Source of the DNA: Somniosus microcephalus
Taxonomy: Eukaryota
DNA length: 64,000 bases
Assembly: GCA_052327205.1 (NCBI GenBank)
Contig: CM126229.1
Location: 42,346,001-42,410,000 of the forward strand
Reading direction: 5' to 3'
A program made the translations under genes and the position numbers. A model generated the notes under the pieces. It was not told the DNA's origin. It worked only from the letters and a program-made list of their open reading frames with translations, and made no database searches. Of this stretch, positions 10,197 to 62,877 are shown one piece after another; within the stretch, counting starts at the first letter, position 1; every line of letters begins with the position of its first letter.

Positions 10197-11147
10197 ATGG
10201 CAGGACAGTTGGGCCCTGTGATCTGCTCCTCCTGCGAAATGTGGGAACTCAGGGACACTTCCTGTGTCCCTGACAACTACATGTGCAGGAAGTGCATCCA
10301 GCTGCAGCTACTGACAGACCGCATTGCGGCGCTGGAGCTGCGATTGGATACATACTGGAGCGTTCACGATGCTCAGGACATCGTGAATAGCACATTTACG
10401 GAGTTGGACACACCGCAGGTGGAGGTTGGACAGGAAGAAAGGGAACGGGTGACCAACAGGCAGAGTACTAGGCGCAGGCAGGTAGTGCAGGGGTCCCCTG
10501 TGGCCATCCCCCTCCCCAACAGATACTCCACTTTGAGTACTGTTGGGGGGGATGGCTTATCAGAAGAAGGCAGCAGCAGCCAACTTCCTGGCACCAGGGG
10601 TGGCTCTGCTGCACAGAATGGGAGGAAAAAGAGGGGTAGAGCTATAGTAATAGGGGATTCAATTGTAAGGGGAATAGATAGGCGTTTCTGCGGCCGCAAA
10701 CGAGACTCCAGGATGGTGTGTTGCCTCCCTGGTGCAAGGGTCAAGGATGTCTCCGAGCGGCTGCAGAACATCTTGGAAGGGGAGGGTGAACAGCCAGTTG
10801 TCGTGGTGCATATAGGCACCAACGATATAGGTAAAAAGCGGGAGGAGGTCCTAAAAGCGGAATATAGGGAGTTAGGAGATAAATTAAAAAACAGGACCTC
10901 AGAGGTAGTAATCTCAGGATTGCTACCAGTGCCACGTGCTAGTCAGAGTAGAAATAGAAGGATACTTCAGATGAATACGTGGCTAGAGGAATGGTGCCAG
11001 GGGGAGGGATTGAAGTTCCTGGGACATTGGAACCGGTTCTGGGGGAGGTGGGACCAGTTCAAACCGGACGGTTTGCACCTGGGCAGGGCTGGAACCGATG
11101 TCCTAGGGGGAGTGTTTGCTAGTGCTGTGGGGGAGGGTTTAAACTAA
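10197..11147 (+). CDS. CR1 ORF1p: CxxC...CxxC zinc finger, coiled coil and SGNH/GDSL esterase domain
   Basis: CSSC..CRKC, GDSIVR, HIGTND and DGLH motifs. Intact 316-aa ORF. Confidence 0.92.
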   Translation: MAGQLGPVICSSCEMWELRDTSCVPDNYMCRKCIQLQLLTDRIAALELRLDTYWSVHDAQDIVNSTFTELDTPQVEVGQEERERVTNRQSTRRRQVVQGSPVAIPLPNRYSTLSTVGGDGLSEEGSSSQLPGTRGGSAAQNGRKKRGRAIVIGDSIVRGIDRRFCGRKRDSRMVCCLPGARVKDVSERLQNILEGEGEQPVVVVHIGTNDIGKKREEVLKAEYRELGDKLKNRTSEVVISGLLPVPRASQSRNRRILQMNTWLEEWCQGEGLKFLGHWNRFWGRWDQFKPDGLHLGRAGTDVLGGVFASAVGEGLN

Positions 11148-17986: not shown

Positions 17987-20369
17987 GAACCAGAAGGAGG
18001 AAACACAGAGTGAGGAACCAGAAGGAGGAAACACAAGAGTGAGGAACCAGAAGGAGGAAACACAAGAGTGAGGAACCAGAAGGAGGAAACAGAGTGAGGA
18101 ACCAGAAGGATGAAACAGAGTGAGGAACCAGAAGGAGGAAACAGAGTGAGGAACCAGAAGGATGAAACAGAGTGAGGAACCAGAAGGATGAAACAGAGTG
18201 AGGAACCAGAAGGAGGAAACACAAGAGTGAGGAACCAGAAGGAGGAAACAGAGTGAGGAACCAGAAGGAGGAAACAGAGTGAGGAACCAGAAGGAGGAAA
18301 CACAAGAGTGAGGAACCAGAAGGAGGAAACACAGAGTGAGGAACCAGAAGGATGAAACAGAGTGAGGAACCAGAAGGAGGAAACAGAGTGAGGAACCAGA
18401 AGGAGGAAACACAAGAGTGAGGAACCAGAAGGAGGAAACAGAGTGAGGAACCAGAAGGAGGAAACAGAGTGAGGAACCAGAAGGATGAAACAGAGTGAGG
18501 AACCAGAAGGAGGAAACACAAGAGTGAGGAACCAGAAGGAGGAAACAGAGTGAGGAACCAGAAGGAGGAAACAGAGTGAGGAACCAGAAGGAGGAAACAC
18601 AAGAGTGAGGAACCAGAAGGAGGAAACAGAGTGAGGAACCAGAAGGAGGAAACAGAGTGAGGAACCAGAAGGAGGAAACACAAGAGTGAGGAACCAGAAG
18701 GATGAAACAGAGTGAGGAACCAGAAGGATGAAACAGAGTGAGGAACCAGAAGGATGAAACAGAGTGAGGAACCAGAAGGATGAAACAGAGTGAGGAACCA
18801 GAAGGATGAAACAGAGTGAGGAACCAGAAGGATGAAACAGAGTGAGGAACCAGAAGGAGGAAACACAAGAGTGAGGAACCAGAAGGAGGAAACAGAGTGA
18901 GGAACCAGAAGGAGGAAACACAAGAGTGAGGAACCAGAAGGAGGAAACAGAGTGAGGAACCAGAAGGAGGAAACAGAGTGAGGAACCAGAAGGATGAAAC
19001 AGAGTGAGGAACCAGAAGGATGAAACAGAGTGAGGAACCAGAAGGAGGAAACACAAGAGTGAGGAACCAGAAGGATGAAACAGAGTGAGGAACCAGAAGG
19101 AGGAAACACAAGAGTGAGGAACCAGAAGGAGGAAACAGAGTGAGGAACCAGAAGGAGGAAACACAAGAGTGAGGAACCAGAAGGAGGAAACAGAGTGAGG
19201 AACCAGAAGGAGGAAACACAAGAGTGAGGAACCAGAAGGATGAAACAGAGTGAGGAACCAGAAGGAGGAAACACAAGAGTGAGGAACCAGAAGGAGGAAA
19301 CAGAGTGAGGAACCAGAAGGAGGAAACAGAGTGAGGAACCAGAAGGATGAAACAGAGTGAGGAACCAGAAGGAGGAAACACAAGAGTGAGGAACCAGAAG
19401 GAGGAAACAGAGTGAGGAACCAGAAGGAGGAAACACAAGAGTGAGGAACCAGAAGGATGAAACAGAGTGAGGAACCAGAAGGAGGAAACACAAGAGTGAG
19501 GAACCAGAAGGAGGAAACAGAGTGAGGAACCAGAAGGAGGAAACAGAGTGAGGAACCAGAAGGAGGAAACACAAGAGTGAGGAACCAGAAGGATGAAACA
19601 GAGTGAGGAACCAGAAGGATGAAACAGAGTGAGGAACCAGAAGGAGGAAACAGAGTGAGGAACCAGAAGGAGGAAACAGAGTGAGGAACCAGAAGGATGA
19701 AACACAGAGTGAGGAACCAGAAGGAGGAAACACAGAGTGAGGAACCAGAAGGAGGAAACACAGAGTGAGGAACCAGAAGGAGGAAACACAAGAGTGAGGA
19801 ACCAGAAGGAGGAAACACAGAGTGAGGAACCAGAAGGAGGAAACACAAGAGTGAGGAACCAGAAGGAGGAAACACAGAGTGAGGAACCAGAAGGAGGAAA
19901 CACAAGAGTGAGGAACCAGAAGGAGGAAACACAGAGTGAGGAACCAGAAGGAGGAAACACAAGAGTGAGGAACCAGAAGGAGGAAACACAGAGTGAGGAA
20001 CCAGAAGGAGGAAACACAGAGTGAGGAACCAGAAGGATGAAACACAGAGTGAGGAACCAGAAGGAGGAAACACAGAGTGAGGAACCAGAAGGAGGAAACA
20101 CAGAGTGAGGAACCAGAAGGAGGAAACACAAGAGTGAGGAACCAGAAGGAGGAAACACAGAGTGAGGAACCAGAAGGAGGAAACACAAGAGTGAGGAACC
20201 AGAAGGAGGAAACACAAGAGTGAGGAACCAGAAGGATGAAACAGAGTGAGGAACCAGAAGGATGAAACAGAGTGAGGAACCAGAAGGATGAAACAGAGTG
20301 AGGAACCAGAAGGAGGAAACACAAGAGTGAGGAACCAGAAGGATGAAACAGAGTGAGGAACCAGAAGGA
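17987..20369. repeat. Minisatellite, 26/28/29-bp variant units GAGTGAGGAACCAGAAGGA(G/T)GAAACA(CA/CAA), roughly 85-90 copies
   Basis: Directly visible. It produces spurious ~800-aa ORFs in all three minus frames. Confidence 0.98.
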
Positions 20370-20576
20370 GTACAAAGGAACAGCAGCAAATCACAGGGCA
20401 TTAAATTCAACCCAACAGTTTTGATGTCACAAACAGTAATGGCAAAGTTCAAATGTTTTATGAAGAGATGGGTGGAGACTGTATTAGGGCCTCATAAACC
20501 CCATGGCTGCTGTTCCTCTCCTATAATGTATAGTGCAGTTTATTTAAATAGAACATTTGTTTTCAACTGGTCTTAC

Positions 20577-25146: not shown

Positions 25147-26033
25147 CAGGAAACTCTTTGGTATCCGGCACCGACGGGGAGTCCAGAACCAGGGGTCACA
25201 GTCTAAGAATAAGGGGTAAGACATTTAGGACTGAAATGAGGAGGAATTTCTTCACCCAGAGAGTGGTGAACCTGTGGAATTCTCTGCCACAGAGGGCGGT
25301 GGAGGCCAGTTCATTAAATATATTCAAAAAAGAGTTGGATATATTTCTTAAGGCTAAAGGGATCAAGGGATATGGGGAGAAGGCAGGGACAGGGTACTGA
25401 ATTTGGATGATCAGCCATGATCTCATTGAATGGCGGAGCAGGCTCGAAGGGCCGAATGGCCTACTCCTGCTCCTATCTTCTATGTTTCTATGTTTCCCGG
25501 TTGATCAAAAATTCCGGATGACTGAGGGGGTTATCTACCGAGGCTATTTTTAACAAAGATAAATTTAAAAATCAAGAAATGTGCAGTATACAGTAATTGG
25601 ATACTCACCTACAGAATGTTGCGTTAAATGGATGGTGGAAGATGCTTGATTGAGTAACGTACTGCCAGTTGAGGGTAATGCAATGCAATGACTACCAGCA
25701 GCGTGGGAGACACACAGTACCCCTGCAAAATGGTGGATCAGAAGAGACTACCGGCAGCGCGGGAGAGTCAGACTCCTGTTATTGAGGTGTTCCGACTTCC
25801 GGCAGCATGGGGAGAGTCCGACTCCTGTTATTGAGGTGTTCCGACTCCCGGCAGTGCCAAGAAGCCGAGTAGTGGCAGTTTGGAGAACTACCCCCACTGA
25901 CTAACTCGGCCACCGCGGGAGACTCAGACTCGGACACATTGCCGGTTATTGAGGGGTTGTTTTCGGGGTGAGAATTTTGCCGGTTGAGAGAGAATTCTGG
26001 ATATTTAGGTGCCGTTTAAACAAGAGTTTCCTG
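25147..26033. mobile_element. Non-autonomous Tc1/mariner-pogo-like TIR element with a nested CR1
   Basis: TA|CAGGAAACTCTT...CGGCACC and GGTGCCG...AAGAGTTTCCTG|TA imperfect TIRs, TA TSD, and internal ~45-bp repeats at about 25750-25855. Confidence 0.8.
25175..25496 (+). mobile_element. Young 5'-truncated CR1 3' end, nearly identical to 13902-14222
   Basis: GESRTRGHSLRIRG...GYGEKAGTGY and the same (TCTATGTT)n tail. Confidence 0.93.
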
Positions 26034-31563: not shown

Positions 31564-31766
31564 CATGCACCTCTATTTTACGGCCCTCAACCACCGTGCC
31601 GTGTAATTTCTCCCTCGCCCTGTCGGCATCAGCACTAGATTCGAAAGTTACGAACCCGAATCCCTGCATGCGGCGGGAGAAGGGGGGAGAACAACATGCA
31701 CATCATTATAAATAGAACAAGTACATGACCACAATCAGCAATACTCTTCTCTCTCATCCTCATGCA
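31564..31766 (-). promoter_or_regulatory. RBFOX-binding (U)GCAUG cluster around the 93-nt RRM exon
   Basis: Plus-strand CATGC(A) at 31564-31569 (inside the 5' splice site), 31667-31671 (abutting the 3' splice site), 31695-31700 and 31761-31766. Confidence 0.85.
31571..31663 (-). CDS. RBFOX2: RBFOX2 93-nt alternative RRM exon ([31 protein letters not shown])
   Basis: GCATGCAG|GGA acceptor, GAG|GTGCATG donor. Contains the RNP1 GFGFVTF motif and is 93 nt, as in mammalian RBFOX genes. Confidence 0.97.
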
Positions 31767-34429: not shown

Positions 34430-36201
34430 TTCTGCTCATACATCAAAGTAAAACTCTGGTGATGAAAGTGATCTTATCAGAGACTATCTTAAATTAGCTG
34501 AGACAGCAGTAGGGACTGGGAAGGAAAATATAAGTAAGGGCTCTGACTGTGAAGTGTACATAAGTGAATGGCTGATTACACTTATTAAACCATCTTCTTG
34601 TTAATGTTATATAAATACTACTCTAATAGAAATAAAATTGAAATCAATTGCAGACAGTACAATGTCATGACAATACTGTGATAATAGTTTCAAAAAATGT
34701 AGTTGGGATGGACTGTTAGGGAAAAACAGGTCAAGATTTGGTAATAAGTCTGAAATTGATGCCAAATGAGAAAACGTCAATGTTCTAAATGATTATTTCT
34801 AATACTACATCCTATCCTGAAAAAAATCCCATACCTCTAACCTTGCTAGCCTTCATTGGCTTCCCACCCTTCAGTGCAGCAATTTCAAATTCCTCTCAGT
34901 CTTGCTCCTTCCCACCTCTGCAATTTCCTTCTGCCCAACATTCCTGAACATACTCTCTGCTCTTACAACTTTGGTCCATTGAATGTTGTTTTTTGGTTCT
35001 TACCTTTCCTTCTCTAAACTGCTTTGGCACACCACATCTCTCACCTTAAAAAGCCTAAAAACTACTTCAACAGTACTGCCATCTGTTTTCTTTCACCTCC
35101 CACCTACTCAGGTCTGACCCCCATTGTCAAGTACTTTGGAAAATATTGCTACATTAGAGATGCTATATGTCAACTTGCACTGAGTGCTAACTAGCAGAGT
35201 GGCTCAATGGCAGCACTTTTGCCCGAGTCAGGAGGGCATTAGTTCAAGTCCCACTCCAAGGCTTGATCACATAATCTCGGCTGATTTCAGTGCAGTACTG
35301 GGAGTGGTGCATTGTCAGAGGTGCCACCTTTCAAATGAGACATTAAACTGAGCCCTGTACAGGTGGATGGAAAAGATTCCATGGCATTATTCGAAGAAGA
35401 ACAGGGGAAGTTCTCCTGGTCTTCTGGCCAACATATATCCCTCAACCAACACTGCCAAAAGAGATTAAACAGTCTTTTATCTCATGGCTGTTTGTGGGAC
35501 CTTGCAGTGCACAAACTGACTGCCAAGTTTGCCTAGATAACAACAGTGGCTATACTTCAAAATACTTCATTGGCTGTGAAGCGCTTCGAGATGCCCCGAG
35601 GATGGAAAAGACACTATATAAATGCAAGTTCTCCCTTTCTTCAATAAATGTAATTTCTGTTGTATTATGGAATAATCACAAAGCAGGAGTCCACACCTGC
35701 AGAGAAGGAAGGAGAGAACCAGAGTGGAAAACAACAGATCTTGAAAGAACAGGACATAAAAGTTCTTCAAATTCAGGAAATCTTAAACATTGGAGTAGGA
35801 GGTCATATTCCCGTGACATGTGGACTCAGAATGGAAAACCCACCCCACGAAACCATTCTGCTCATACATCAAAGTAAAACTCTGGTGATGAAAGTGATCT
35901 TATCAGAGACTATCTTAAATTAGCTGAGACAGCAGTAGGGACTGGGAAGGAAAATATAAGTAAGGGCTCTGACTGTGAAGTGTACATAAGTGAATGGCTG
36001 ATTACACTTATTAAACCATCTTCTTGTTAATGTTATATAAATACTACTCTAATAGAAATAAAATTGAAATCAATTGCAGACAGTACAATGTCATGACAAT
36101 ACTGTGATAATAGTTTCAAAAAATGTAGTTGGGATGGACTGTTAGGGAAAAACAGGTCAAGATTTGGTAATAAGTCTGAAATTGATGCCAAATGAGAAAA
36201 C
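34430..36201. repeat. 346-bp direct duplication (34430-34775 and 35856-36201) with a 1080-bp spacer
   Basis: Both copies run TTCTGCTCATACATC...GCCAAATGAGAAAAC and appear identical by eye. Confidence 0.92.
35195..35640 (+). mobile_element. tRNA-derived DeuSINE (SacSINE1-like); a second copy at about 55605-55985 and a minus-strand tail at about 2120-2225
   Basis: A box TGGCTCAATGG, B box GTTCAAGTC, Deu-like GCATTGTCAGAGGTGCC..TTTC..ATGAGAC.TTAAAC, and tail CTATATAAATGCAAG. Confidence 0.75.
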
Positions 36202-39200
36202 CTCGCCCGCATCAACAGCTCTTAGAGAACCCCATTTTGGACAGATTAACAGAAATTCAACCAATTCAGTTCTAACTATCCCTAAAGTCACCTCTCCTCA
36301 ATTTAGCATCTGGTACACACATAGGTTTGACACAGCCAGCTTTGGACATGATGTGGACATTGAAGCCCATGGCACTTTAGCAGCAACTTACTAATAATTT
36401 AATATACATGAGTTTTATTCTTTGGAGTTAGGGCCCATATGGAGGGGTGGTAAATAATTGGAAGGAAGGTGCGATGGAGGTAGCCCAAGTAACTCGTCGT
36501 TTTAACCTGGCCTCAGAACTGCAATAAATACAAGCAACAGATGAGCAGTGTCAAAAAAGTAGATCAACCCCTGCAGAAGAATGATAAATAAACGTTACTA
36601 GATACAAATATAAAAAACGAGAAATCAAAAAAAGGCAATACTCCTATATGTGTTCATAGACAGAAAACACAATTTAACCCATAAGAATACATGCACTATA
36701 TCCCAATATACCACAGTGCACATAATAACACAGTTTCAGCAGCAAAAAACAATCATGCTTGAAGTGATTGGTCGAGGGTAGTTGTTTTCATGCTGCGTTA
36801 GAGGATCTACAACCTTATTCATCATCTGTAAATGACGCGAAGCCGTTTGCAAGAACCAGTTCCCCTGAACTCAGGCCCACAGATGATGCTACAGTCTTTG
36901 TTCCAATAACGACATACCATTTTATGGAGTCTGCTATGGGCTAGTTATCAAGGCAAAGCATTATCCAATTTGGAGTGACTGGGCTCCATTTGAATGCTTC
37001 CCTCTATTCTTGACCAAGAGCTGTGAGGCCAATCAGCAGACCAGACACCAGCCAGAGAAAGCCAACCACCGCCAACAGGAGCAAAAAAGACCACAGACTA
37101 CAAGGTACTTCATATCACTCCATTCACCTGGCACAGCACTCGAATGAAACAGACCCCTCCAGTCAAGAGAGCAAAGAAATGGACTAATTCAATCCTGGAT
37201 TATACAGTTTTGTGTTTTAGTCTGACTAATAGAGATAACTCTCATTTCTGCTCATGATAGCTACTCTAAACCTGACTAACTGGGTAAAAGATTGCTCATT
37301 TTAGCTTTCTTTCTCGACTGTCCTGCACGTTTATAAATTTCCATGAAATAAAATGAAACGGCTGTGATTTTCTGAGAAACAAATGACAAACATCACAGCA
37401 GGAGCCAAGGATGTGTCTTTGATTAATGGAGCAGTTAATCTGGAGGTCCCTGTTTACATTACATTACAAGCATTAAATATATATGTAGCCCTGCTGAAAT
37501 TATGGCATTTCAGCAAATGTCTAAGGTTTTCCTCAACATAACATGGGAGAACTCCAGCATTGTGAAGTATCCGATCATTTATGTACTAGGTTTTTTCTAA
37601 AATTACCTTCCCCTCTCGAAATTTCTTGTCTACAAGCGATGTCTATTGCTTGGGCATGATTCCATGGGCTCTGGCTGCCCTTCAATACCTTGGACAAATG
37701 ACCATTCTTTGTGCATGAGCCAAGGCAGTTAGTTTTGGCAGGTTGAGAGATTTCAGGAGCATTACAGCCAAGTCTGATCCTGTCTTCACCAGATGCCCAT
37801 ACAGTGATCACTGGAGAGCAATCAGGAGCAGGAACCATGGGCAATTCCCCCCCCCATAACCTATGAGGCACTGAGGCTGATGTTTACACCATAACTGCTG
37901 CCCTGGTCGAGATCAACTAATGCAGCAGTGTCTTGGCATCGACATGGGGTCTTTTAGACTTTGTGGCAGTACCTTTATCTGAAACGTTGGGAGCTAATGA
38001 TTCATTTTTGATAAATTAATGGCACGGTTAACCTGTAGATACTTTGTTTCTAAAAAAAAAAAAAAAAAAAAAAATTCTGAGCATAATCAAAGCAGGAGAA
38101 GGTTTGAACACTTGAGTCGAATAGCCTGCCAACACTTATTGTCTAGGCTCAAAGAGGAATTAATGGCACTTGAACGAGTTACTGGAAGGTGTTCATGGAA
38201 CCCTAACTCAACAAGGCAACAGCTTCAAGGGGCAAAATAAATTAGCAAACAAAAATATATTCAGTAGGAGAATGAACATTAATTTCCAACTATCCAACTT
38301 TCATTTAATACTTAGTAAATATAAAGATCCCAGATATTTTTAGTTGAAGTAGCTCACTGACCACGATTTAGCTTAAATGTTGCTGTGGTGTCCATTCTAG
38401 CAATGATTGCACCCTGACTGAGGATCCCTGGACATTCTTGCAAGCCACTCCTCATCATCAATTCAGTTTGATTTTTCCCAATCAGAGCAGTTTGGACGTG
38501 GTTAGCAGTGGTCTCACAGATACCATACACAGCAAGCACACCAATGCATGATGTGTCTCTGTGAGCTGGATATCTGTGGTCGACTCAGAGGACCCATTGT
38601 ACAGAATAGCAACTATGCAAAGACAGCTGTGAAATTCACGATTAAAAGCAAAAGGTGTGGGGACGAGAGGAATCTGGTCAAATCTGTCACCAGAAAGGTT
38701 GATCTCAGTATTAAAAATGTTGCTTCATTAGTCGTTAAATCAAAAGGAAAGGGATAAAAAACATGTTTTTCCTAACCCTTTTTTTTTTTAGCATGAAGTG
38801 GTTTTAGTGAGACAGTTAATCATATAAAACATCAGAATACTGTGTGGCGATTGGTCCCCTGTATTTCTGGAAAAACACAAACATAACCAATCAAATCACA
38901 TTCTGACTCCATCTCTGCGAGCCATACCTCCCACCCACCATAAAGATAGAAACAGAAAAGATTAAACTTCAAAATATATTTCAAATCTATTATTTTAAAG
39001 AGACAATATCCCAATTTCCTGACCTGTACAGTCAGTTACAATCAATTGTACAAAATCAGAAAGGGGTAAAAATGTCTAGAGGGAGTATCGCTCGTGTGAG
39101 ATTTTCTGGCCTCAGAGTCCTGCTACTTTAGGTCTCCATCCCAACTCAAAGCTCTGACAGCTAGTAGTGCTGTTTCTGGGGTTGCCTGACTTCAACTGGC

Positions 39201-41345
39201 TCCCAGGCTGGGTAGAACCAGACTGTTGTGCAGTGAATGGGGCAGCTCGGTGATGTCTGTGACCCTCCCTGCACACAAGTCAGAGAGATGCTGAAGAGAA
39301 AAGGAGACTCCCAAAACGATAGGTGTCCATAATTAGAGAAAAAAAGATCGCTCAACTCCGTTAGACTTTCCCTCGACTTTAAACCTCACAAGCTGGTTCC
39401 TGCAAGTTGATCAGCCACTTCAATCCACCAGCTGTATGGCATCACTTGCTAGGCAAGAGGATGGGTATGTGGGCAATATCAAGCCACTTGAGCCCAACAC
39501 TGGAAAGTCCACAAGAATGGTTCCAGCTGGGTGGGTGGGAGAAGGCAGATCAAGAGTGCAGCATTTGGGTTATTTATCAGCACCTACCCATTAGCCCAGG
39601 ACTCCACAGCACAAAACTTGGCAGCGCTAACTTGTCTTTATTTTTATTTTTTAAACTTGCTGTACAGGACAATAAAAAGGAAGATTTTCTCTTAAAAACT
39701 TACTCTAAAAAGACGTAATCATAACAGAACCAATACGCACAAACATTTTTCATCAATCGTAAATCATAAATTGGCGTATTGCAATAAGTAAAATTACAAG
39801 TAGTCATCTCTCTCCTCTCACCCTCCCAAACATTTTCATGTCTACCATGAAAGCTGTAATCGATCATCACCAACAAAAAACATTAAAATGTTCCAACTCC
39901 CAAACAATACAAACTCAATACATTAAACATTCCTCCAGTGATTATTTCCTAGCACTAATTAATTTTGCTCTTTTCCTAAATCTGCTACCTCTTGCTGGCA
40001 TACTGTTCCACATGTGGTGGTCGCTCCACAGTACCTTGCTCAAGTGTGAGCCCAGATAGAGTGTACCAGCAAGCCAATGAGCCATGAGGTGCATCGCAGC
40101 CAAGTCCAATCCTGTTTCGCCCAATGTTCACACGCATACTTTCCATTGGAGTCACTGGATAATGATCAGATGTCGACATCTTAGCCAATATTTCCACCCC
40201 CTCCCCCAGTAATATCCCTTTTGCTGCCCTCCTCGGTGAATAGCTAGCTCAAGGCACTATTATATTATACAGTAATATAAGGGACCCCGGGGAAGCAGCA
40301 TCCAAATGGAGATCTGCAATCCTTTGCTGCTACTATCCTTTATACTGTTGCCCCAAATCGATGCCTAAAGGCTAGAGGCCCGTGATTCCTAAATTTAAAA
40401 GGGAGTCTGTCTCCGCAGGTGTAGCTTTTTTAAATGGAGACCTAATGGCAGATTGCATGATCCACAGTGGTATCTGGTACATTACAGAATGCTATTGGCT
40501 ATTACTGCCATCAGGGGCACTTCTTCAATGTAAATGTACCAAACTTATCTAGTCAAGGAAAACAAGTCTCAAATTGGAGGTTCTTAAACTTTCTTAATGC
40601 CAAGCAGAAATCATCAACAGGCTTTTAATCACCAGATAACGGAGTCAGTGTTTGCTGTTGGTTCAAATTACATTTACCTTGTATAGGAGACAAGTACCAG
40701 ATTGACTCCATGCACCAATCTCCCATGTTTATATTGTCAGTTATCTCATTCTGCTGTAGTCTGCTAGAGTCCGATTCAGAAAATGGAGACCTGGTTTTCA
40801 GCACAGAAGACCGGGTCTCTTTCTGAAACAGCTTCCAAAGGGCCTGCAGGAAAAGCAGCAAATGCCAATATAAAAGTCAATCCGCTGACATTTCAGGTCA
40901 CCGAAACATCGACTGATCGTTTCTCCACAGATGCTGCCTGACCATTTCCAGCTTCTTCTGTTTTTGTTTATAAGATTTCCAGCATCTGCAGTGTTTAGTT
41001 TTTTTGCCAATATAAGAGGCTGTTCTTTGAACTGCCTGCATGAACCCATTTGACATTGGAGTCAGTGGGGCTGGGAAGACCAAAGGCAGACCTTGGAATT
41101 GATGCTGAGCTGGTTATCACATGGCTACCGGTGTGGAATTTCCCTCAACACCAGTGAAGATTCATGAACAGAAACTCAAGGTTACAAAGGGGACTCATAA
41201 ACCACGGAGAGAGATCTGGTGCATCTGCAGTTGCCTCAGAGTTGCTGCCAGTACTCTGAATCTGCCCACAATGTAAATGGGAGAAATCTGCAGTATCTTG
41301 CAGCCTCTACAAAGCCATTTATAAGCAAGGTAGGAGGTTAATACC

Positions 41346-41501
41346 ACCACAACAGAAAATGCTGGCAACACTCAGTAGGTCAGGCAGCATCCGCGGAGAG
41401 AGAAATGTTTCTCTCTCCACGGGTGCTGCCTGACCTGCTGAGTGTTTCCAGCATTTTCTGTTGTTGTTTCAGATTTCCAGCATCCGCAGTAATTTGCTAT
41501 T
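41346..41501. mobile_element. Same palindromic family, centre deleted, flanked by a 16-bp TSD
   Basis: Inverted arms, with GTAGGAGGTTAATACC at 41330-41345 and 41502-41517. Confidence 0.8.
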
Positions 41502-42855
41502 GTAGGAGGTTAATACCTTTTCTTTTGAAATAGCCAGATAAATTGGGGGGCGGGGGAAGATAACTAGAAGGAACCTCAATATTGTTTTGTTGACAGCCCC
41601 CTATGACCCTCCTCTCCACTTCAAACTGTAGCAGCAGCAAATGCAAAGACTGCAGGGTCACAAGCGAGCAAGTCGTTATCCTGACTCAAACCCATCTGCA
41701 TCTGTACAGTGATTCTTCTATCAAGTTTAAACTGCCCTTGTTGGAAAAAAAATAACATGCTCATACACGGTGCAGCATCTTATAAAATGGAATATTTTTT
41801 ATTTAACAAGGGCTATTTTATACGAATACACAGAAGGACTGCAGAATAGTTAAGTTGCCTGTAAAGCACACTGTTATTGTCGGGGTTAGGAAGCAGTGGC
41901 CAGCCATGTCCCTTTTTAATCCCCACGGATCTATTTTTCTCCCTCTAAACTGCTCAGCAGCACAAGTGGCTTTGAATAGCAGCTCTGTGATTAAGAAGCT
42001 TGCCAGCAAGCTCTCAAACAATAAATGAAAAACATTCACCTTGGAAATTGCTTTTTAAAGTTTCCTGCAGATGAAATGCAGAATTAAAATAACACTAGGA
42101 ACTCGACATTGGAGTGGTGTATAATTTAAAAACAAGCAGTCTGGGAAAGGGAGGAGGAGAGATGAATACATTTATTTCCACAATAGTACAGAACAGATCA
42201 CTGAGTATGATAAACTGTATTCTTGAGGAAAGGAGGTACTGCCCAATAATTGAAAAATCTTAAGCATTTTTCAAAATATATTAGTCTTTTATATTGAATA
42301 GTCTCCTGTGACTAAAAACCAATTCCAGACCAGCAACATTTTCCAAGTTTAGTGACCATCAGCCAGAAATCTATTGGACTGAGAGAGGAGACAGCATCAG
42401 GAATAAGCAAACCAACTGATCCCCAGCATCAAGAGCGGGCACACAAGCAAAGTAAGCCTGGACTACAGATACAGCTAGTCAGTAAAAGCAACCAAGCGAA
42501 AGGCTCGACAAATGGCGACAATTCTGGGCTCTGGACTTAGTTTAAGGTTCAGTGAAGTGGACTAATAAAAAGGCAAATGAGTAAGTGAAGAGTCAATAAA
42601 AAGTACACTGATACACCATAAAATGGCTACCAGGAAGTACTATAAAATAAAGGTTAGTGAAGAGAATGGTGAAAATTACTGCCCATCGAGACTGCAGTAT
42701 TGCTGAAATTAACAGCAAAAAAGCCTGATTGTGGAAAATGTCACTAACTGGAAATGGTTTTAAAATAGCCAGTGACTAAACTGCTTCTTCAGTCTTTCTA
42801 TAGAGCAATAACTGCAATGATTGCTGCATGTAGAATTGTTTTTAAATGTGCTTAC

Positions 42856-42909: not shown

Positions 42910-44064
42910 CTGCAGAGAAGAAAAAAATAAGTTTGTTAGTATACATGTCAGTCAAAATTCTGCTCTATACACAACTCTTTCACATACTTTCCCCATTTCT
43001 CTTACGGTGCTGGGACCGAGTTCCGTGGGTGCTAGTAGCCCTTCAGTAACTCACTCAAGTGGTCATTCTTCTTGATTGATTTTAGCCAGTAGGCGTCAAT
43101 GAAAGGCTATTTAACCATGAGGGATATCACAACAGAGTCTGATCCCGTCTCTCATCCACGGACATGCACTTTTGAGCAGGAATCACCAGATAATGATCAG
43201 GAATGCTGATTTATTTTAGGGTACTAAGACTAGGACTTAATAGTGGAACCACTGCTCCTAGCTGAAGTTACCTACCACTACAGAGCGGAGATCAAATCCA
43301 GGGCCATTGGCCTTTATGGATCAGCGCCCCCACTAGTCAGTGATTTACCCATTAAGCACCAAGCACGTGTGTAACATGCCCTTTAATCCAATTGTTCTGT
43401 CTGGCATGGATTTAAATCCAGCTCCAAAGCTGAAATGCTGCTTAAACATAGTCAGACTTTCGGGTCCCAACAGAAGGTGATCGTTTTTTGCTAACCCCCC
43501 CCCCCCCTCCTCCTGCTGCTTCTGTCCAGCAGGGATAAATCCTTTCTCAGAAGTGAAAGCAGCACATGGTTCTAACACATCAGGATTTGCTAGGGCCGCA
43601 TTGAAAACTTTAGCCCCCACCCCCACCCACCCGGTTTGACTTGATATAAACCCAAATCACGAGCTAAAAGTAGCATGATGCTTGAAAATTGAGATACTGA
43701 GAAAAACAAAGAAAGCTTCCACCTGCCTGGCTCTGAAAGCAGCTCTCAAAGGCAAAAGGGCACTGATCTAACAGTTAGTTCCCTATTGAAATGAAGCAAT
43801 TTAACTGACTGGACCAGGTAAAAATCCAAATGATTCACTGCAAGGGGCTTTTGAATCGTCAGGTTACATTTTGCTCAGTATAGCTGCTTTTATATTGGTG
43901 CTAATGTGGTGCTAATGCTGCCAATTCTGACACGTGGGTCTTGCTAAACTGGCAGCAAACCCAGAGTAAATGTGCAACTCCTACTGTCCAGTCACAGACA
44001 GAAAGAACTTGAACATATAATGAATATGCTGGCCTACACTGGCAGCTTGTCCCCATACATCTCA

Positions 44065-44452
44065 AATTTAAAATTCTCATCCTCGTGCTTAAATCTCTTC
44101 AAGGCCTCGCCCCCCTCCCCATCTCTATAACTTCCTCCAGCCCTACAGCTGGTGTCCTCCAAACTCTCCGTCGCTGAGACTCTGGCCTCTTGTGCAACCC
44201 CCCCTTCAGCCCACCATTGACAGCAGTGCTTTCAGCTGTCAATGCCCACGCTCTGGAACTTCCTCCCGAGAATCCTCTGCTCGCCAACTCTCTCTCCTCC
44301 AATACTATCTTTAAAACCCACCTCTTTGACCAAGCATTTACGCCCCCAATATCTTTTTCTTTGGCTCAGCTGCCTTTTTTTGATTAGGGCTATGAAGGGC
44401 TTTGGGACATTTTTCTACATTGAAGGAGCTATGTAAATGCAAGTTGTTGTTT
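44065..44452 (+). mobile_element. L2-clade LINE 3' end (other pieces at about 34800-35170 + and 22500-22830 -)
   Basis: FKILILV.KSLQGLAP..., LWN.LP and LKTHLFDQAF-like sequence, with tail ATGTAAATGCAAGTTGTTGT. Confidence 0.75.
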
Positions 44453-44642
44453 TACACCGGCACTACTTTCATTCAAATTCCAGGAGACTGGCGATCTGGC
44501 TCCCGGGGTTTACACTGCCAACTCTAGCTCCATTGTCCTAGCCAGGATAAGTGGCTAGATTAATAGAGCAGCTCACTGCCACTGGCATCCCAGAATCCAA
44601 ATTCAAACATGGCAAATATTAAACCAACTATAATGCACTTAA

Positions 44643-44866
44643 ATAACAGAAGAAGCTGGAAAAACTCAGCAGGCCAGGCAACATCCGTGGAGAGAGAAAC
44701 AGTCTCAACGTTTCAGCTCGAAGACCCTTCCTCAGAATAGAGTTCTGTAGAAGGGTTTCGATCTGAAACGTTAACTGTTTCTCTCTCCACAGATGTTGCC
44801 TGGCCTGCTGAGTTTTTCCAGCTTTTTCTGTTGTTATTTCAGATTTCCAGCATCCGCAGTATTTTC
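44643..44866. mobile_element. Palindromic short interspersed repeat with twin hammerhead-like cores
   Basis: About 90-bp inverted arms. The centre has CTGnnGA...GAAACGTT on both strands. Confidence 0.7.
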
Positions 44867-45678
44867 CTAACGAAACCGCTGGAGGGATGGGTCAAATCTT
44901 TCGTGTGTAACTGTCGAACATACCCCTTTATGTCCTTTGATATTAAACTTCATTAAGTTTGTTTGTAAAATTGAGTATCAAACAAAATGTCAATGTTTGA
45001 TGGCTTTGTTCTACAATTCTTCAGTTCATTCCAAAACTCAGAGAAACTCTGTAAATCCAAAGTTGGCAATTGTGTACATTTAACATCCGGAACAGCAAAG
45101 GATGAGATGACAAACTTGGGCAGAATTTGCCTATCAAAGACTCTAATAAATGATCCAGTCAGAGAATAGAGGATTAACTAATCCTGTATGGACATTTCTC
45201 ACCCCATTGCTATCCAATTATCATATCTTTAATAGCACGGATTTCCAATGCTCACACAAAAAATGGAAAGTTCCCTTTACATTAACTCTCCAATACATTT
45301 TAGCCCCTATTAAACCAGCCTGGCATTTCCATTTTTAAGTTTTCTTCACAATTTGTTCTGCCAAATGTTTCTCCTTCCCCCAAGGCATTGCTGGAGTATG
45401 ATTCCGGGGTGCCAAACACTTTCCAGTACCTCACCCAAATAGATTAGACAAGGGCCTGCATGGCGTCACTAGGATTCCAGTAAAGCAAAACTGTGAACAT
45501 TAGTAATGTTCCTACTCTGCCGACTTGAGCCGAGAGTAACACTCGGCAGTGAAATTATCATTGTCCTCCCAACCCCGAATTGTGTCTGGAGAGAAAGCAT
45601 TTTGAACTGTATGCAGCAACAGGGTTGCTATTAATGAGGATACGTCCGAGAGCAATGGAAGATGATTTGAGGTGACAG

Positions 45679-45938
45679 TAGGGTTGCCAGCCCTCCAGGA
45701 TTGTCCTGGGGTCTCCAGCAATTAAAGATTAATCTCCTGGACACGAGCAAGCCAAGAGAAAAATCGTAGGGGCATTAGAAAGAAAATGCTGTATTTTTTT
45801 TCCATTTTCTTTGAACATTTATTAGTTAAAAAAATATTGCAGATAGGAAGAGGCTGTTTGCCTGGGCGGGGCAACTGGAGTCGAGATGTCATGGGATGAA
45901 ACCGCCAGGAATACGTCCAAGCAAAGCTGGCAACCCTC
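45679..45938. mobile_element. hAT-like MITE
   Basis: AGGGTTGCCAGC / GCTGGCAACCCT TIRs. The flanks GGTGACAG / GGCTACAG (6/8 match) look like a decayed 8-bp TSD. Confidence 0.7.
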
Positions 45939-46481
45939 GGCTACAGTATACACACGAGTATTGACGCTAGTGCAACCTTCCCTCCTGCATATTACTACCA
46001 ATACACTAAATAAGCTTGGGAACAACACTTGCCAATTTAATAACACCAAAATAACTCCAAGTTGAACCAGATATGCCAAACATTTAGATACATTGTGTAT
46101 GAATAAATAGGACATTCCAGTGAAGTTCATATATGAACCTGAACCAGGAACAGACAATTTTATGCTGCTGAATTGCAGCTATTCAAAACTGGAATGACAC
46201 AGTCCGATTCACTTCACATAGGACCTTTCCAGCAATCAGAGACAGGACTACCTTCCTCGCTGTGGTCGGGAGAGATGAAAATTCAGTGTTATAAACAACA
46301 GTACAATCCAATCTCTTCATATTATTTCGTGTGGCATTTTTCAGTCTTTTATTAGGTGGTCAAATTCTTGCACAAGTGTCACTGGTAAATTCCCTGCCTG
46401 GGGTAACTCCACAAACTCTAATGGGAAAATATTTTAGTATGAATCCCTGAACAGAGTTCCAGTAAAAAGCTCATCCCTTAC

Positions 46482-51154: not shown

Positions 51155-51403
51155 TGTGGCGGTTCCAGATACAGGCTGCACATTGGCAATTGTGCCACTC
51201 TGTTCCCCAAGGGTCTGACTGGATGCGTAGATATTCAGAGTATGGTCTGGGACTGGCGTCTGGCCTGTGTAGTCCTGAGTGTGTGGAACAGTGTATTCTG
51301 TTGGAATTCCATTCTGTGGAGGAGGAGGAGGAGGGGGAGGGAATGGAACTGTAGCGTACGGCTGTACCATAGCGTCTGGGGTGGCTGCTGGCTCCTGGCT
51401 ACC
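51155..51403 (-). CDS. RBFOX2: RBFOX2 exon, N-terminal domain ([45 protein letters not shown]...SGTAT), 249 nt, phase 0-0
   Basis: TTCAG|GGT acceptor and ACA|GTAAG donor. The [14 protein letters not shown] and PHTQDY motifs match RBFOX2 better than RBFOX1 or RBFOX3. Confidence 0.93.
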
Positions 51404-51649
51404 CTGAAGAAAGATGAATGAAAAATGACATTTGAGGAACGTTTCTCATGACATTCTTGGACAGGGTTTAAATGTGCATCATTCAATGACCTGAATGACA
51501 TGATCACATTTAGACTTCAATAACAATCCTGCAAGATCTGTTCTCCCCAGACTACTGCGGCAAAATGCCTGCTCATTTGTAAGACCAGGAATTTTAGAAA
51601 TTACCAGGAATTTTAGAAATAATGACATTTCCAGTACAGCTAAAAAGAT

Positions 51650-51835
51650 AAACTGCAAATGCTGAAAATCTGAAATACAAGAAAATATTGGAAATACAGC
51701 GTCAGTCAGCATCTGCGAACAAAATTGACAGGTTAATGTCTCCGGGACAAAGGGCCTCAACCTGAGCCCGTAACCTGTCTCTTTCCTTTCCAGATGCTGA
51801 CAGACCTGTGTATTTCCAGCATTTTCAATTTTTAC
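51650..51835. mobile_element. Degenerate copy of the palindromic family (another partial copy at about 40890-41000)
   Basis: ACTGCAAATGCTG.AAATCTGAAATA arm and CAGATGCTG...TTTCCAGCATTTT counter-arm. Confidence 0.6.
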
Positions 51836-53299
51836 CTTTGCAGAAGGTAGTAGATTAGAAATACTTTTACAATATAGTACCCTTACAGTACCCTTTTTAA
51901 ATGAAATTTTAACATACAAAAAGGCAGATAGAAATTATCAAACTATTTTCAAATCGCTGGTTTTGAAACACAGAGTTAACAGCACAATACAGCAACCATT
52001 TCACTCTGCGGCACGGTCTCATATTGACATTACACAACTGTGACTCTCGGTACAGACTTATCTTTGGTTATACTCAATTGGTGTGCACTACAGGTCTATA
52101 ACACAATGAAAGTGTTCACGGGGCACCAGTCTCATTGCTCCCTAATGTCTAAATATGGCAGTATCATGCTGCAGTCAGTGACAGACTCCAATACAGTAAT
52201 TGTGTATGTTATTCTGGTATGAGCCAGTCTACATGCTGGTGTGGAGCAGTGGCTTTCAAACATTTGTGTGGGATCCCCTGCAAATATCGACCCATTCCCA
52301 GGTAGTAGCTTTAGTAGAAAACTTGTGTTGTAAAATCCAGCACAGCTTTCCACATCTGACTGACGAGAATGGCAAAAACATTTGATCATACTGAAGTGAT
52401 GAGAAAGTACAAGATGTATGGATTCAAGATTTGGAGCATACTAATCCAAGTGGAGCGGGGTGGGAAGGGGTGCTGAGACAGTGGGAGCGCTTTAAAAAAG
52501 AAGCACAACAGCGTGAAGTTCAACTTCAAAGAGCTGACACCCAGCCTGGAACAGACGAAGCCCGCAAAAGCCTTTTATATATTTCCTCCCCTTAATCTCA
52601 AGTTTGGACTGCATCTCTGATGGCATGACCAAATAGGAGAGAAAACAACACAGTAAAAGGCAGCAGTGCTGCCAGTTGGCCAAAATGAATCTAAAATAAA
52701 ACTAGGCCTTAATCCTTGAACATTTTGGTTATGTACAGTGCATAAGGGTTGGATCCTTAAGGAGTGGAAGGGTCAGAAAGATTGCGTTAGTAAAAAAAAA
52801 AGCCACTGTATACTGGAAGACAAAACAAAGTCACTAATTTGTCACAAGCTGACCTCAGGTCTAGAGTCTTTACTGGTCCTCATTAAATTGTGGCTCACGA
52901 GTTGTTTTGTTGCCTAGCAACTGCTGAATTCTGTTTTCAGGAGGAAACATTAAAATACACTGGTTTATCATGCAACTGGGGTGGGTGGGGACACAATTCT
53001 ACTGGCAACGAGATGCTTTTTACAAAATTGAAATGCCAGTGACTGATCACTCACATCACCCCCTACCTTCCGTGACAGAGGAGGCTGGGATTGAAAAATC
53101 AGACCGTGAGTAATAATACGGTGCTCCATCACATGACATTAAACACTGCCCAGCCAGAACAATCCAACAGTTGCCTTATCCGCACACAACGTTTTCTTCG
53201 TAATATTGGATAATTTATGCAATGTGAACATTCTCTGAAGGTAAAGGCTCATCCACATCAAGCAGATTGCAGTAGGTGAACAGTATTCATCCATAATAC

Positions 53300-58787: not shown

Positions 58788-59193
58788 CCCATTCCGATGC
58801 ATCTGACTAACCGCCCTCCGCGCTTCAATGGGGTTGTGATTTTCCCCATTCCGATGTATCTGACTAACCGCCTTCCGCACTTCAATGGGGTTGTGATTTG
58901 CCCCATTCCGATGTATCTGACTAACCGCCCTCCGCACTTCAATGGGGTTGTGATTTGCCCCATTCCGATGTATTTGATTAACCGCCCTCCGCACTTCAAT
59001 GGGGCTGTGATTTGCCCCATTCCGATGTATTTGATTAACCGCCCTCCGCACTTCAATGGGGCTGTGATTTGCCCCATACCGATGTATTTGATTAACCGCC
59101 CTCCGCACTTCAATGGGGTTGTGATTTGCCCCATTCCGATGTATTTGATTAACCGCCCTCCGCACTTCAATGGGGCTGTGATTTGCCCCATTC
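58788..59193. repeat. 57-bp tandem repeat, about 7 copies
   Basis: Unit CCCATTCCGATGTATTTGATTAACCGCCCTCCGCACTTCAATGGGG(T/C)TGTGATTTGC, with 19-aa periodicity in the ORF track. Confidence 0.95.
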
Positions 59194-59989
59194 TGCTCCA
59201 TCATAAATCTCACTCCTAATATTTCCCTAAACAGCATAAAATCTTAAATTTTTGCAGAAAAGTGGTAGTTTCTTTCATCTAATGTAACAAGAGAGCCATC
59301 ACATTTTGGACCACTTTTCTCACAGGAAACTACCAGATGTTTACAGCTTACACTATGACAAAGGCAACGGAAGTTTGCACTGCTTGCACACCTACTTCAC
59401 TCAGCGCAGCCCCTTCATCTTATAACTCATTTATAATGTACAGCCACAGTAGCATGTGACTTTGAGTGTGCAGAGGCGCCAACTATGGTTGGTGAATCCA
59501 CCCCATTTAGACTGCCAGAATATTTAATAGGAGTGAGAAGATTGCAATGGCTTCTGCCAGTCTTTATGCCTCACCAGCCAGTCAAGTAATTGCAGTTCAA
59601 TTACTTTGTGTGGTTTCTTGTATGGTTTGAAAAGGGAGTTGAACAAGTTTCTTTTTGGGGGAAAAAAAGTTGCATTAAAAAAAAAATTCTTTCAACTAAA
59701 AACATGTGTACTATCAATGATCCAGATTTGAACAATCTACAATTCACCCTATTTTCCCAAGTCCTGACTGTAGAAGGATAGGACTACATCGATGCGGAGT
59801 ACGGTTCTCAATAACCCACCAAGACGAGCAATTCATCATCAAGGGGAAGGCTAGGAGTAATCGTTAGCCAGGGCTGCAATGTGAACCCAGTCCCTCAGCA
59901 GCACGGTGTAGAAATGCCTGCACCACTTGGTCACCTTCATTCAAGAGGTTTTAAAAGACTAAACATATGAATAAACTATTCCTGACAAA

Positions 59990-62877
59990 TATATAAGGGC
60001 AAGGCTGGATGGCATCCATTTTAATGCAAGGAGTCTTGCAAATAAGGTGGATGAACTGAAGGTGTTGATAAACACATGGGAGTATGATATTGTTGCTATC
60101 ACGGAGACATGGTTGAGGGAAGGGCAAGATTGGCAGCTCAATATTCCGGGGTACAGAATCTTCAGGCGAGACAGAGGGGGAGGTATGAGAGGAGGGGGTG
60201 TCGCAATATTAATTAAGGAGTCAATTACTGCAGTAAGGAGGGATGATATATTAGCAGGGTCCTCTCATGAGGCCATATGGGTGGAGCTTAAAAACAAAAA
60301 GGGGGCAAGCACTTTGCTGGGCGTGTACTATAGGCCTCCAAACAGTCAGGAGGAGATAGAGGAACAGATATGTAGGCAAATCTCAGAAATGTGCAAATAA
60401 TAGGGTAATAATAATGGGGGATTTCAACTTCCCCAATATTAACTGGGATAGTCAGAGTGTGAAAGGCTCAGAGGGTGTAGAATTCTTAAAGTGCATCCAG
60501 GAGAGCTTTTTGAGCCAGCATGTAGAAAGTCCTACAAGAGAGGGGGCGGTACTGGACCTAATTCTAGGGAATGTGGCCGGCCAAGTGGAAAAAGTGCTAG
60601 TAGGTGAGCACTTTGGTGACAGTGACCATAATATGGTAAGATTTAAGGTGGTCATGGAAAAGGACAGGGATGGGCCGGAAATAAAGGTTCTAAATTGGGG
60701 GAAGGCCGATTTTAATAGGATAAGGCAGGATCTGGCCAAAATGGACTGGGATCAGCTACTTGTAGGAAAATCCGCATCGGAGCAATGGGAGGCTTTCAGA
60801 AGGGAGATTGAGATCATACAATGGCAACATGTTCCCGTAAAGGTCAAGGGTGGTTCCAAAAACCACAGGGAACCTTGGATGTCAGGGGATATACGAGAAT
60901 GGATTAGGAAAAAAAGGAGGGCTTTTGGTAGATACAAAAGGCTAAAGACGGAGGAAGCCCTAGAGGAGTACAAAAAGTGCAGGGGGATACTTAAAAAAGA
61001 AATTAGGAGATCAAGGAGGGGCCATGAAATAACACTGGCGAGCAAAATAAAGGAAAATCCGAAGATGTTTTATAAGTATATTAAGGGTAAGAGGATAACT
61101 AGGGAAAAAATAGGGCCCATTAGGGACAAAAGTGGCAATCTGTGTGTGGAGCCGGAAGATGTAGGAGGGGTTCTAAATGAATTTTTTGCATCTGTTTTCA
61201 CTATGGAGAAGGACGATGTAGACATAGAAATAGGGCGGGGGGGACTGTGATATGCTCGAACATATTAACATCGAGAGGGAGGAGGTATTGGCGGTTTTAG
61301 CTGGCCTAAAAATGGATAAATCCCCAGGCCCGGATGAAATGTATCCCAGGCTGCTGTGTGAGGCAAAGGAGGAGATTGCGGGGGCTCTAACACATATATT
61401 CAGGACCTCTCTGGCCACAGGGGATGTGCCAGAGGACTGGAGAACCGTTAATGTAGTACCATTATTCAAGAAGGGTAGTAGGGAAAAACCGGGGAACTAC
61501 AGGCCAGTGAGCCTAACATCAGTGGTAGGAAAACTATTGGAAAAAATCCTGAGGGACAAAATTTGTCTCCACTTGGAGAGGCAAGGATTAATCAGGGATA
61601 GTCAACATGGCTTTGTCAAGGGAAGATCATGTCTGACTAATTTGATTGAATTTTTTGAGGGGGTGACTAGGTGTGTGGATGAGGGTAACAGTGGATGTGG
61701 TATACATGGATTTCAGTAAGGCCTTCGATAAAGTCCCGCACAGGAGACTGGTCAAGAAGGTAAGAGCCCATGGAATCCAGGGTGCCTTGGCACATTGGAT
61801 ACAAAACTGGCTTAGTGGCAGAAGGTGATGGTCGAAGGCTGTTTTTGTGACTGGAAGCCTGTGGCCAGTGGGGTACCACAGGGATCGGTGCTGGGTCCCT
61901 TGCTGTTTGTGGTCTACATTAATGACTTGGATATGAATGTAAAGGGTATGATCAGTAAGTTCGCGGATGATACAAAAATTGGTAGGGTGGTAAATAGCGA
62001 GGAGGGTAGCCTCAGTTTGCAGGACGATATAGATGGGTTGGTCAGATGGGCGGAACAGTGGCAAATGGAATTTAACCCGGAAAAGTGTGAGGTGATGCAC
62101 TTTGGGGGGACTAACAAGGCAAGGGAATACACAATGAATGGAAAGACCCTAGGCAAGACGGAGGGTCAGAGGGATCTGGGTGTGCAAGTACACAGATCCC
62201 TGAAGGCGGCGGAACAGGTGGATAAGGTGGTAAAAAAGGCATATGGGATACTTATATTCAATGCCTCGGCTAATGAAGGCAAGAGCAAGGAGGTTATGAT
62301 GGAGCTGTATAAAACACTGGTTAGGCCACAGCTGGAATACTGTGTGCAGTTCTGGTCGCCACACTACAGGAAGGATGTGATCGCGTTAGAGAGGGTGCAG
62401 AGGAGGTTCACCAGGATGTTACCAGGGCTGGAGCGCTTCGGCTATGAAGAGAGACTGGGCAGATTGGGTTTGTTTTCCTTGGAGCAGAGGAGGCTGAGGG
62501 GGGACATGATTGAGGTGTACAAAATTATGAGGGGCATAGATAGGATGGATGCTGAGGAGCTTTTTCCCTTAGTAGAGGGGTCAATAACTAGGGGGCATAG
62601 ATTCAAGGTAAAGGGCGGGAGGTTTAGAGGGGATTTGAGAAAGAACTTTTTCACCCAGAGGGTGGTTGGAGTCTGGAACTCACTGCCTGAAAGGGTTGTG
62701 GAGGCAGAAACCCTCAACATTTAAGAAGCATTTGGATGTGCACTTGAAATGCCATAACATACAAGGCTACGGGCCAAATGCTGGAATATGGGATTAGATT
62801 AGGCAGGGCTTGATGGCCGGCGCGGACACGATGGGCCGATGGGCCTCTATCCGTGCTGTATGACTCTATGACTCTAA
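59990..62877 (+). mobile_element. 5'-truncated CR1 LINE (ORF2 only, different subfamily), disrupted
   Basis: ORF pieces 60047-60400, 60414-61250, 61252-61719 and 61825-62724 encode APE and RT (FADD). Ends in a (GACTCTAT)n tail. Confidence 0.93.

Follow-up and report, generated by a model that had tools for sequence, protein, structure and literature searches.

Can a shark intron harbour a mobile element built with hammerhead ribozymes in both polarities, or is a mirror-image pair of ribozyme motifs what is left when a retroelement copies itself into place? The question is raised by a palindromic repeat in the 64,000-nt stretch of DNA analysed here (the window), in which a preliminary description had noticed two inverted hammerhead-like motifs and had taken them for the design of a non-autonomous, Penelope-derived element.

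Hammerhead motifs on both strands

The plus-strand motif was present where it had been described, as a minimal type I hammerhead at positions 44741-44776 with one core substitution. Its helix I comprises four pairs (44741-44744/44773-44776), and the core that follows (44745-44752) carries a U in place of the conserved base at position 6 (44748), a position at which substitutions strongly reduce hammerhead cleavage. Helix II (44753-44756/44761-44764) consists of G.U, G-C, G.U and U-A pairs capped by a UUCG loop and is followed by GAAA at 44765-44768, a palindromic ACGU at 44768-44771 and a predicted cut between 44772 and 44773. One A, originally assigned to the start of helix II, is rather an unpaired base between positions 9 and 10.1, as in the CUGANGAH consensus of Fig. 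S3 in PMC4209133.

The minus-strand motif, also a minimal type I hammerhead (44705-44737), had the intact core and weak helices ascribed to it: the core at 44735-44728 is unaltered, helix II contains a G-G mismatch, helix I is only 2 bp long, and the predicted cut lies between 44707 and 44706. The two cores stand head-to-head, separated by 9 nt, in the apex of a single hairpin, and both copies have ACGU at positions 15.2-16.2, the palindromic sequence suited to a dimeric helix III that the preliminary description had pointed out. Compared with CUGANGAH...GAAAN-NUH, the minus core is intact and the plus core differs by the single substitution at position 6. An intact core together with a proper helix I (3-6 bp) and helix II (at least 4 bp, G first) never occurred in one copy, as the plus copy has the helices without an intact core and the minus copy an intact core without the helices. 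The suspicion that each hammerhead is partly decayed was thus borne out, by a mutated core on the plus strand and by broken helices on the minus strand.

The pattern CTGANGAN{4,34}GAAACGT matched once against 0.04 matches expected, a level reached by 4 of 100 shuffles, and the hammerhead core alone was reached in 16 of 100. A helix descriptor tolerating at most one core mismatch found the plus copy only, and a descriptor with a strict core that permitted a single mismatch in helix II found the minus copy only; both descriptors were set post hoc, and neither was attained in any of 100 shuffles. The fully strict hammerhead descriptor returned no match in the window. Rfam gave no match at gathering score anywhere in the window, and the 14 weak matches at E ≤ 10 within 44500-45000 were mostly to generic hairpin models, with hammerhead absent among them. 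As mirror copies of each other, the two motifs count as one observation and not as two independent ones.

Architecture of the insertion

The motifs belong to an insertion of ~230 bp (44642-44869) consisting of inverted pLTR-like arms placed head-to-head and a one-sided tail. The repeat is palindromic, as had been stated, but the extent of 44700-44780 originally given to it was too small, since the paired arms reach over 44642-44703/44774-44835, where they are 95% complementary around a symmetry centre at 44740. The tail-bearing arm (44739-44835, plus strand) contains the hammerhead and then the pLTR-like body, and the tailless inverted arm (44642-44737, minus strand), which runs in the sense of the host gene, is identical to it in 87 of 93 aligned columns. 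The two arms meet at an inversion junction (44736-44744) with a 2-bp closing stem and a 5-nt loop, a candidate point of cDNA fold-back. The resulting 194-nt hairpin has a predicted folding energy of about −154 kcal/mol with folding z-scores of −23 and −25. Beyond it the plus arm continues unpaired for 30-34 nt to 44869; this tail (44836-44869) starts between 44836 and 44840, depending on gap placement. No target-site duplication of 6 nt or longer was found at the 44642-44869 insertion.

Two substitutions (44796 and 44802) are common to both arms and absent from the other copies in the window, a pattern that a mirror half copied from a single template during insertion would leave. The arms differ from each other at about 8 places in 97 nt, compared to 4.05 expected for an insertion postdating the divergence from the closer relative (organism C; P = 0.054). 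The hammerhead part has 5 differences in 35 nt compared to 1.46 expected (P = 0.017, or 0.087 with the farther relative), an excess over the outer arm that is not significant (Fisher P 0.13). These statistics rest on our own count of events; taken as they are, the arm differences somewhat exceed expectation, so that perfect self-copying leaves part of them unexplained.

Sister copies in the window

Three further copies of the repeat allowed us to compare boundaries. A sister palindrome at 41346-41500 has no hammerhead cores, carries its tail on the plus strand and is flanked by a 16-bp target-site duplication (41330/41502); its arms begin 5-6 nt 3′ of the equivalent predicted cut. With its perfect 16-bp duplication, the 41330-41517 interval is the cleanest insertion record in the window and was possibly copied from cleaved RNA. 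An older, plus-strand copy at 40874-41004 starts near GAAA, has a tail and is flanked by an 11-bp direct repeat (40863/41005); a short inverted arm considered for this copy failed pairwise alignment and was rejected. The third copy, an old palindrome at 51647-51844, has arms that begin inside a decayed hammerhead and a tail on its minus arm.

The head-to-head inverted pLTR, in the form of a clear palindrome of 120-200 bp, was thus found in 3/4 window copies, and the one-sided tail in 3/3 of the palindromic ones. Of 8 arms tested, 7 aligned to the plus arm, one of them trivially, being the plus arm itself. The equivalents of 44835, 44834 and 44843 mark the ends of the tailless arms, and those of 44869, 44864 and 44866 the ends of the other copies' tailed arms. 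Arm starts vary across copies from about −32 to +6 nt relative to the predicted cut. Duplication-like repeats of 16 and 11 bp flank two of the four copies, and the studied copy has none. The one-sided 30-34-nt tail and the duplications of the sister copies are consistent with a Penelope-like insertion, which the preliminary description had proposed. The symmetric terminal inverted repeats, fixed target-site duplication and shared interior of a MITE were not observed among the four copies, in which the tail is one-sided and the centres and duplications differ.

The further idea that the element had been built with ribozymes in both polarities found no support in this comparison. Only 1/4 window copies keeps two cores, the copies start at different places, and both arms of the studied copy carry the two substitutions missing from the other copies, as with a mirror half made from a single template. 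The dual-polarity appearance is probably an artefact of insertion.

Empty site and family sequences

We aligned two RNA runs (X18 and X19), labelled as coming from a best-matching species, and the contigs of two related species (X4 and X9), 4 of 23 listed sequence sets. In both relatives a single record (X4 record 4 and X9 record 10) aligned up to 44642 and resumed at 44874, with 13 nt between these points compared to 231 in the window. The flanks of the two relatives diverge at 35/838 (4.2%) and 55/828 (6.6%) positions. With an empty site in 2/2 related species, the simplest reading is that the insertion took place after those splits: it is young, and up to 13 target bases were lost with no duplication.

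Family reads, taken at 80% likeness, gave the majority letters of the motif. A T>C change at 44762, which repairs the third helix II pair of the plus arm, was found in 166/166, 79/79, 388/423 and 290/295 reads (923/963 RNA), and a C>G change at 44717, which turns the G-G mismatch of the minus-arm helix II into a G-C pair, in 437/466, 509/532, 985/1003 and 1209/1243 reads (3,140/3,244); in the relatives' contigs the 44717 change reached only 27% and 41% of depth. An insertion of CT behind 44774 was found in 163/430 and 381/1198 RNA reads (32-38%) and at ~0.7% of the relatives' contig depth, and by inspection it lengthens helix I, paired with 44739-44744, to 6 bp. Since the family letters repair helix II and lengthen helix I, the family motif reads as a standard Penelope-type minimal hammerhead, and the defects at 44741-44776 and 44705-44737 appear, among the letter changes listed, to be private to this copy. 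The earlier assignment to minimal type I hammerheads of the Penelope type, within a repeat that is non-coding and of high copy number, therefore agrees with both the published consensus and the pairs restored by the family reads.

The family is very abundant, with 31,450 and 51,169 contigs and 12,646 and 22,352 RNA reads of the two runs on a 1.5-kb stretch that also contains another repeat. No RNA data set was listed as matching the locus itself, and RNA depth on the unique flanks was near zero, so that RNA reads matching the element derive from other copies, and ~90% of the aligned reads continued into unlike sequence, as for dispersed copies. Loose read ends piled up at 44865/44869, at one or both positions in 4/4 runs, and also at 44838 in X9. 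Relative to the arm bins, the centre bin had a depth of 23-36% for RNA, and the relatives' contigs gave 1.5-3.1%; either truncation or subfamily divergence could account for this. Neither RNA run (2/2) showed a pile-up of read starts or ends inside the element, including at either cut, the three such places in the stretch all lying outside it; with the library type not given, this is a weak negative for cleavage. RNA reads were skewed between strands over 44663-44866 (1496 vs 726 in X18 and 3105 vs 2417 in X19 for the tail bin, and the opposite on the mirror arm), in libraries whose strandedness is not given. Stretch-wide tallies gave no A-to-I editing signal, with A>G and T>C places numbering 19/21 and 26/27 in RNA compared to 18/26 and 22/29 in contigs.

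The neighbouring repeat (44040-44451), likewise in high copy, is present in both relatives and presumably resembles a LINE 3′ end. RNA reads on it contain short tandem joints from 44147 back to 44112-44115.

Capacity of the motifs to cleave

Folding suggested that both motifs are very probably unable to cut RNA. Forcing the hammerhead fold in a 51-nt context cost +4.9 kcal/mol for the plus and +13.4 kcal/mol for the minus motif, and in the whole element +40.2 and +42.3 kcal/mol, respectively. Even in transcripts ending just past the cut, the core was predicted to be already held in the hairpin. Because the head-to-head cores lie on opposite strands, a dimer in cis is impossible, and because in either direction of transcription the complement of the core precedes it and holds it within the 194-nt hairpin, neither should cleave. 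According to published work, minimal hammerheads of Penelope-like elements (PLEs) are inactive as monomers and weak as dimers (PMC4209133; PMC6765202), and the minimal hammerhead of an anole PLE needs protein for cleavage (PMC11167929). In vitro, the unprocessed RNA of the anole element serves as the insertion template, making cleavage dispensable (PMC11167929).

Host intron and surrounding repeats

The host intron (42910-46481, minus strand) is 3,572 nt long, with GT at 46481 and AG ending at 42910, and separates two RRM-coding exons of an RBFOX-type gene whose exons we located with RBFOX peptide motifs and whose paralogue name we take to be RBFOX2. RRM_1 matched a later exon at 31583-31678 (E 1.7e-07; 1/3 exon pieces scanned). 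The insertion lies mid-intron, at a distance of >1.6 kb from both splice sites, and its intact core is on the sense strand of the gene. Its effect on the host, if any, is most likely that of long intronic double-stranded RNA. Another RBFOX exon (51212-51406, minus strand) encodes eight prolines before QNGIP, presumably a longer run than in vertebrate RBFOX orthologues.

The window, which is animal DNA, contains other repeats. A near-complete CR1-type LINE (10194-14222) has an ORF1 with a GDSL lipase/esterase domain and an endonuclease-RT frame; a second, more broken one lies at ~59975-62724, and a 321-bp pair with 98% identity (13902-14222 and 25175-25495) matches the CR1 3′ end and suggests recent CR1 activity. 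A 2.4-kb purine-rich tandem array (17987-20370; AT skew 0.82, units of ~26-30 and 55 nt) is open in three minus-strand frames, and further tandem arrays with 57-nt and 111-nt units occupy 58788-59193 and 9589-9967. A 349-bp direct repeat with 99.7% identity (34430-34778 and 35856-36204, 1.4 kb apart) is a very recent duplication, an LTR-like pair or an assembly feature.

Origin of the palindrome

Quite probably a shark Penelope-like retroelement inserted its 3′ end (pLTR and tail) here recently, as a copy that was dead on arrival; we infer its Penelope parentage, the fold-back and the inactivity. The element's reverse transcriptase, primed at the nicked target, would begin at the tail end (44869), copy uncleaved RNA through the hammerhead and halt ~7 nt 5′ of the core. 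The cDNA end would then fold back on the 2-bp stem and 5-nt loop, and self-copying would yield the mirror arm, which would halt at the pLTR/tail boundary and join the other flank, deleting up to 13 target bases without duplicating any; after insertion the two cores would have decayed separately. Arkhipova et al. (2013, PMC3846280) interpret junction palindromes in PLEs as the result of self-priming on an antisense template, and the first-strand cDNA may be that template here. The differing centres of the copies and the substitutions shared by the arms suggest that the mirror half would have been newly made at each insertion.

A coding parent was sought with short queries, which makes the protein-search negatives weak. 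The 42-aa frame had no match to an RT/GIY-YIG parent or to any other protein, and a profile of four arms had four matches, none with an RT or GIY-YIG domain; we rejected these as one chance tandem repeat and three repeat-derived read-throughs. Pfam gave nothing relevant in seven frames over the copies or in a 31-aa frame. Scans with the family pattern found 0 matches in viral contigs and 0 in prokaryote genomes, and 14 metagenome loci (GC 0.52-0.69, matching a 20-mer only, one of them 28 nt) were rejected as chance. Predicted proteins of two sharks, Heterodontus francisci and Scyliorhinus torazame, do contain the family read-through peptide, which makes a shark host very probable. The repeat is translated in the shark gene models XP_067897430.1 and GCB70218.1, as an annotation artefact or through exonisation at AG/ATG. 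PLEs have been reported as expanded in whale shark introns (10.1101/443036).

Whether the hammerhead has a part in the fold-back bears on a more doubtful extension, to which we give a small chance. In it, the hammerhead region itself sets the stop and fold-back, or acts as a splice-versus-cleave switch (mRNA versus transposition template) that may lie in the parent element's retained 5′ intron. All six aligned arms and the plus arm begin within about −32 to +6 nt of the cut, one copy just 3′ of it and the others inside the uncleaved fold. Under a crude exponential-length null, this clustering had a probability of 0.0001-0.02 for the three unselected copies, a tiny sample; the clustering would look no different if the master RNA were short. 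The predicted cut also coincides with a 3′ splice-site-like motif (44771-44795, plus strand) composed of a branch-point-like TTAAC, 14/16 pyrimidines and CAG/ATG; the cut lies 1-2 nt before the branch-point-like A, which is 18 nt upstream of AG/ATG. The host-sense arm is without the AG and without TTAAC, and the repeat peptide begins at the Met of CAG/ATG in 3/3 places (two predicted shark gene models). Both the splice site and the peptide starts are predictions. Selection against a splice acceptor on the sense strand was considered and rejected, since the AG is kept in 1/3 sense and 3/4 antisense arms, and a CpG change explains this equally.

Alternative explanations

Two alternatives concern the origin of the palindrome and its cores. 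Three of four window copies being clear palindromes of 120-200 bp, a family of 31,450 and 51,169 contigs (on a stretch shared with another repeat) and a coding parent absent from protein and Pfam searches would all suit a palindromic non-autonomous element, MITE-like or a fixed PLE-derived hairpin, that moves whole with two cores fixed in its master. We regard it as unlikely because arm starts differ between copies (about −32 to +6 nt relative to the cut), the tail is one-sided, flanking duplications are 16 bp, 11 bp and none at three copies, and copy-specific substitutions are common to both arms; the relatives' centre-bin depth of 1.5-3.1% of the arms also argues against it, although subfamily divergence could produce the same figure. 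The cores might instead be chance or degenerate look-alikes in an unrelated shark repeat without ribozyme ancestry, as the missing Rfam hammerhead match, the zero matches of the strict descriptor and the attainment of the core alone in 16/100 shuffles would allow. However, the helix descriptors were reached in 0/100 shuffles, the faulty helix II pair of either arm is precisely what the family letters restore, with helix I made longer as well, and a PLE-type tail and target-site duplications are present, which together make this origin very improbable.

Two functional readings appeared slightly less credible still, and equally so. An active dual-polarity unit, retrozyme- or viroid-like and processing both strands of a circular or rolling-circle RNA, is suggested by the cores in both polarities and the abundant family RNA in 2/2 runs, and infectious circRNAs do bear ribozymes in both polarities (PMC7761336). 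Yet tandem copies, defining for non-LTR retrozymes, are absent; minimal hammerheads are poor cleavers that depend on dimers of the same strand, and here each core is sequestered and neither copy is free of a defect in core or helix. The read ends without pile-up at the cuts (a weak point) and the ~90% of reads entering unlike sequence, as for dispersed copies, also speak against such a unit. The mid-intron position, with the intact core on the sense strand, might point to a domesticated regulator of RBFOX pre-mRNA acting through cleavage, splicing or editing, and palindromic repeats are strong ADAR substrates in the frog (PMC5625713). Such a role is hard to reconcile with the insertion missing in 2/2 related species, with the weakest helices falling on the sense-strand copy >1.6 kb from the splice sites, and with A>G and T>C place counts that are alike in RNA and contig runs. 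The insertion of a Penelope-like 3′ end with fold-back at the target thus remains our preferred explanation.

Comparison with known systems

The shark motif shares CUGANGAH, G at 10.1, GAAA and a loopless palindromic helix III with the minimal PLE hammerheads of metazoans (Cervera and De la Pena 2014, PMC4209133), which cut after NUH, have a 4-6-bp helix I and are mostly dispersed as single motifs; chondrichthyan examples are absent among the Fig. S3 rows listed from that paper. The same source describes dual minimal hammerheads on opposite strands 100-700 bp apart, and one motif with which a truncated PLE begins at its 5′ end, whereas the shark cores are only 9 nt apart, at one hairpin apex, and both defective. 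Non-LTR animal retrozymes (PMC7229834; bioRxiv 10.64898/2026.07.22.740005) are likewise non-coding and PLE-related with a type I hammerhead, and have been reported in one chondrichthyan genome (bioRxiv 10.64898/2026.07.22.740005), whose supplements may list the shark family. As those sources present them, however, retrozymes form head-to-tail tandems of mostly canonical hammerheads, while here a single head-to-head pair has minimal cores; self-comparison of the window revealed no tandem unit at the insertion, that is, no two or more units head-to-tail. The palindromic Harbinger repeats of Xenopus (PMC5625713) also form ~200-nt self-folding stretches within transcripts and are ADAR substrates, but belong to a DNA-transposon family without hammerhead or tail.

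Outside Repbase and subscription journals, our search found no publication that deals with hammerhead palindromes of shark PLEs or with a fold-back at the hammerhead. The locus, a single decayed member of a shark repeat family of very high abundance, matters little as such; its value lies in a dated and simple record of a Penelope-type insertion, with an empty site in relatives, arms made from one template and a 5-nt junction loop. The role of PLE hammerheads has been stated as unknown (PMC8557442; PMC7761336). If junctions cluster at the ribozyme genome-wide, shark genomes would provide a very large data set on the hammerhead during reverse transcription, and if the fold-back or switch reading is true, the PLE hammerhead would have a role besides cleavage. 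The closest likeness is to described PLE insertions (PMC3846280; Craig et al. 2021, PMC8557442; Frangieh et al. 2024, PMC11167929), in which, according to the descriptions consulted, an inverted 5′-truncated copy meets its partner at a palindromic junction, a 30-40-bp tail stands at one end and the target-site duplication is variable or missing; the inversion, the junction and the one-sided tail are as observed here, in a copy with no such duplication. In contrast to those insertions, the ORF between the repeats is absent and a pLTR stump stands alone. Both motif and architecture have thus already been published, and the insertion is an ordinary example of a known element type.
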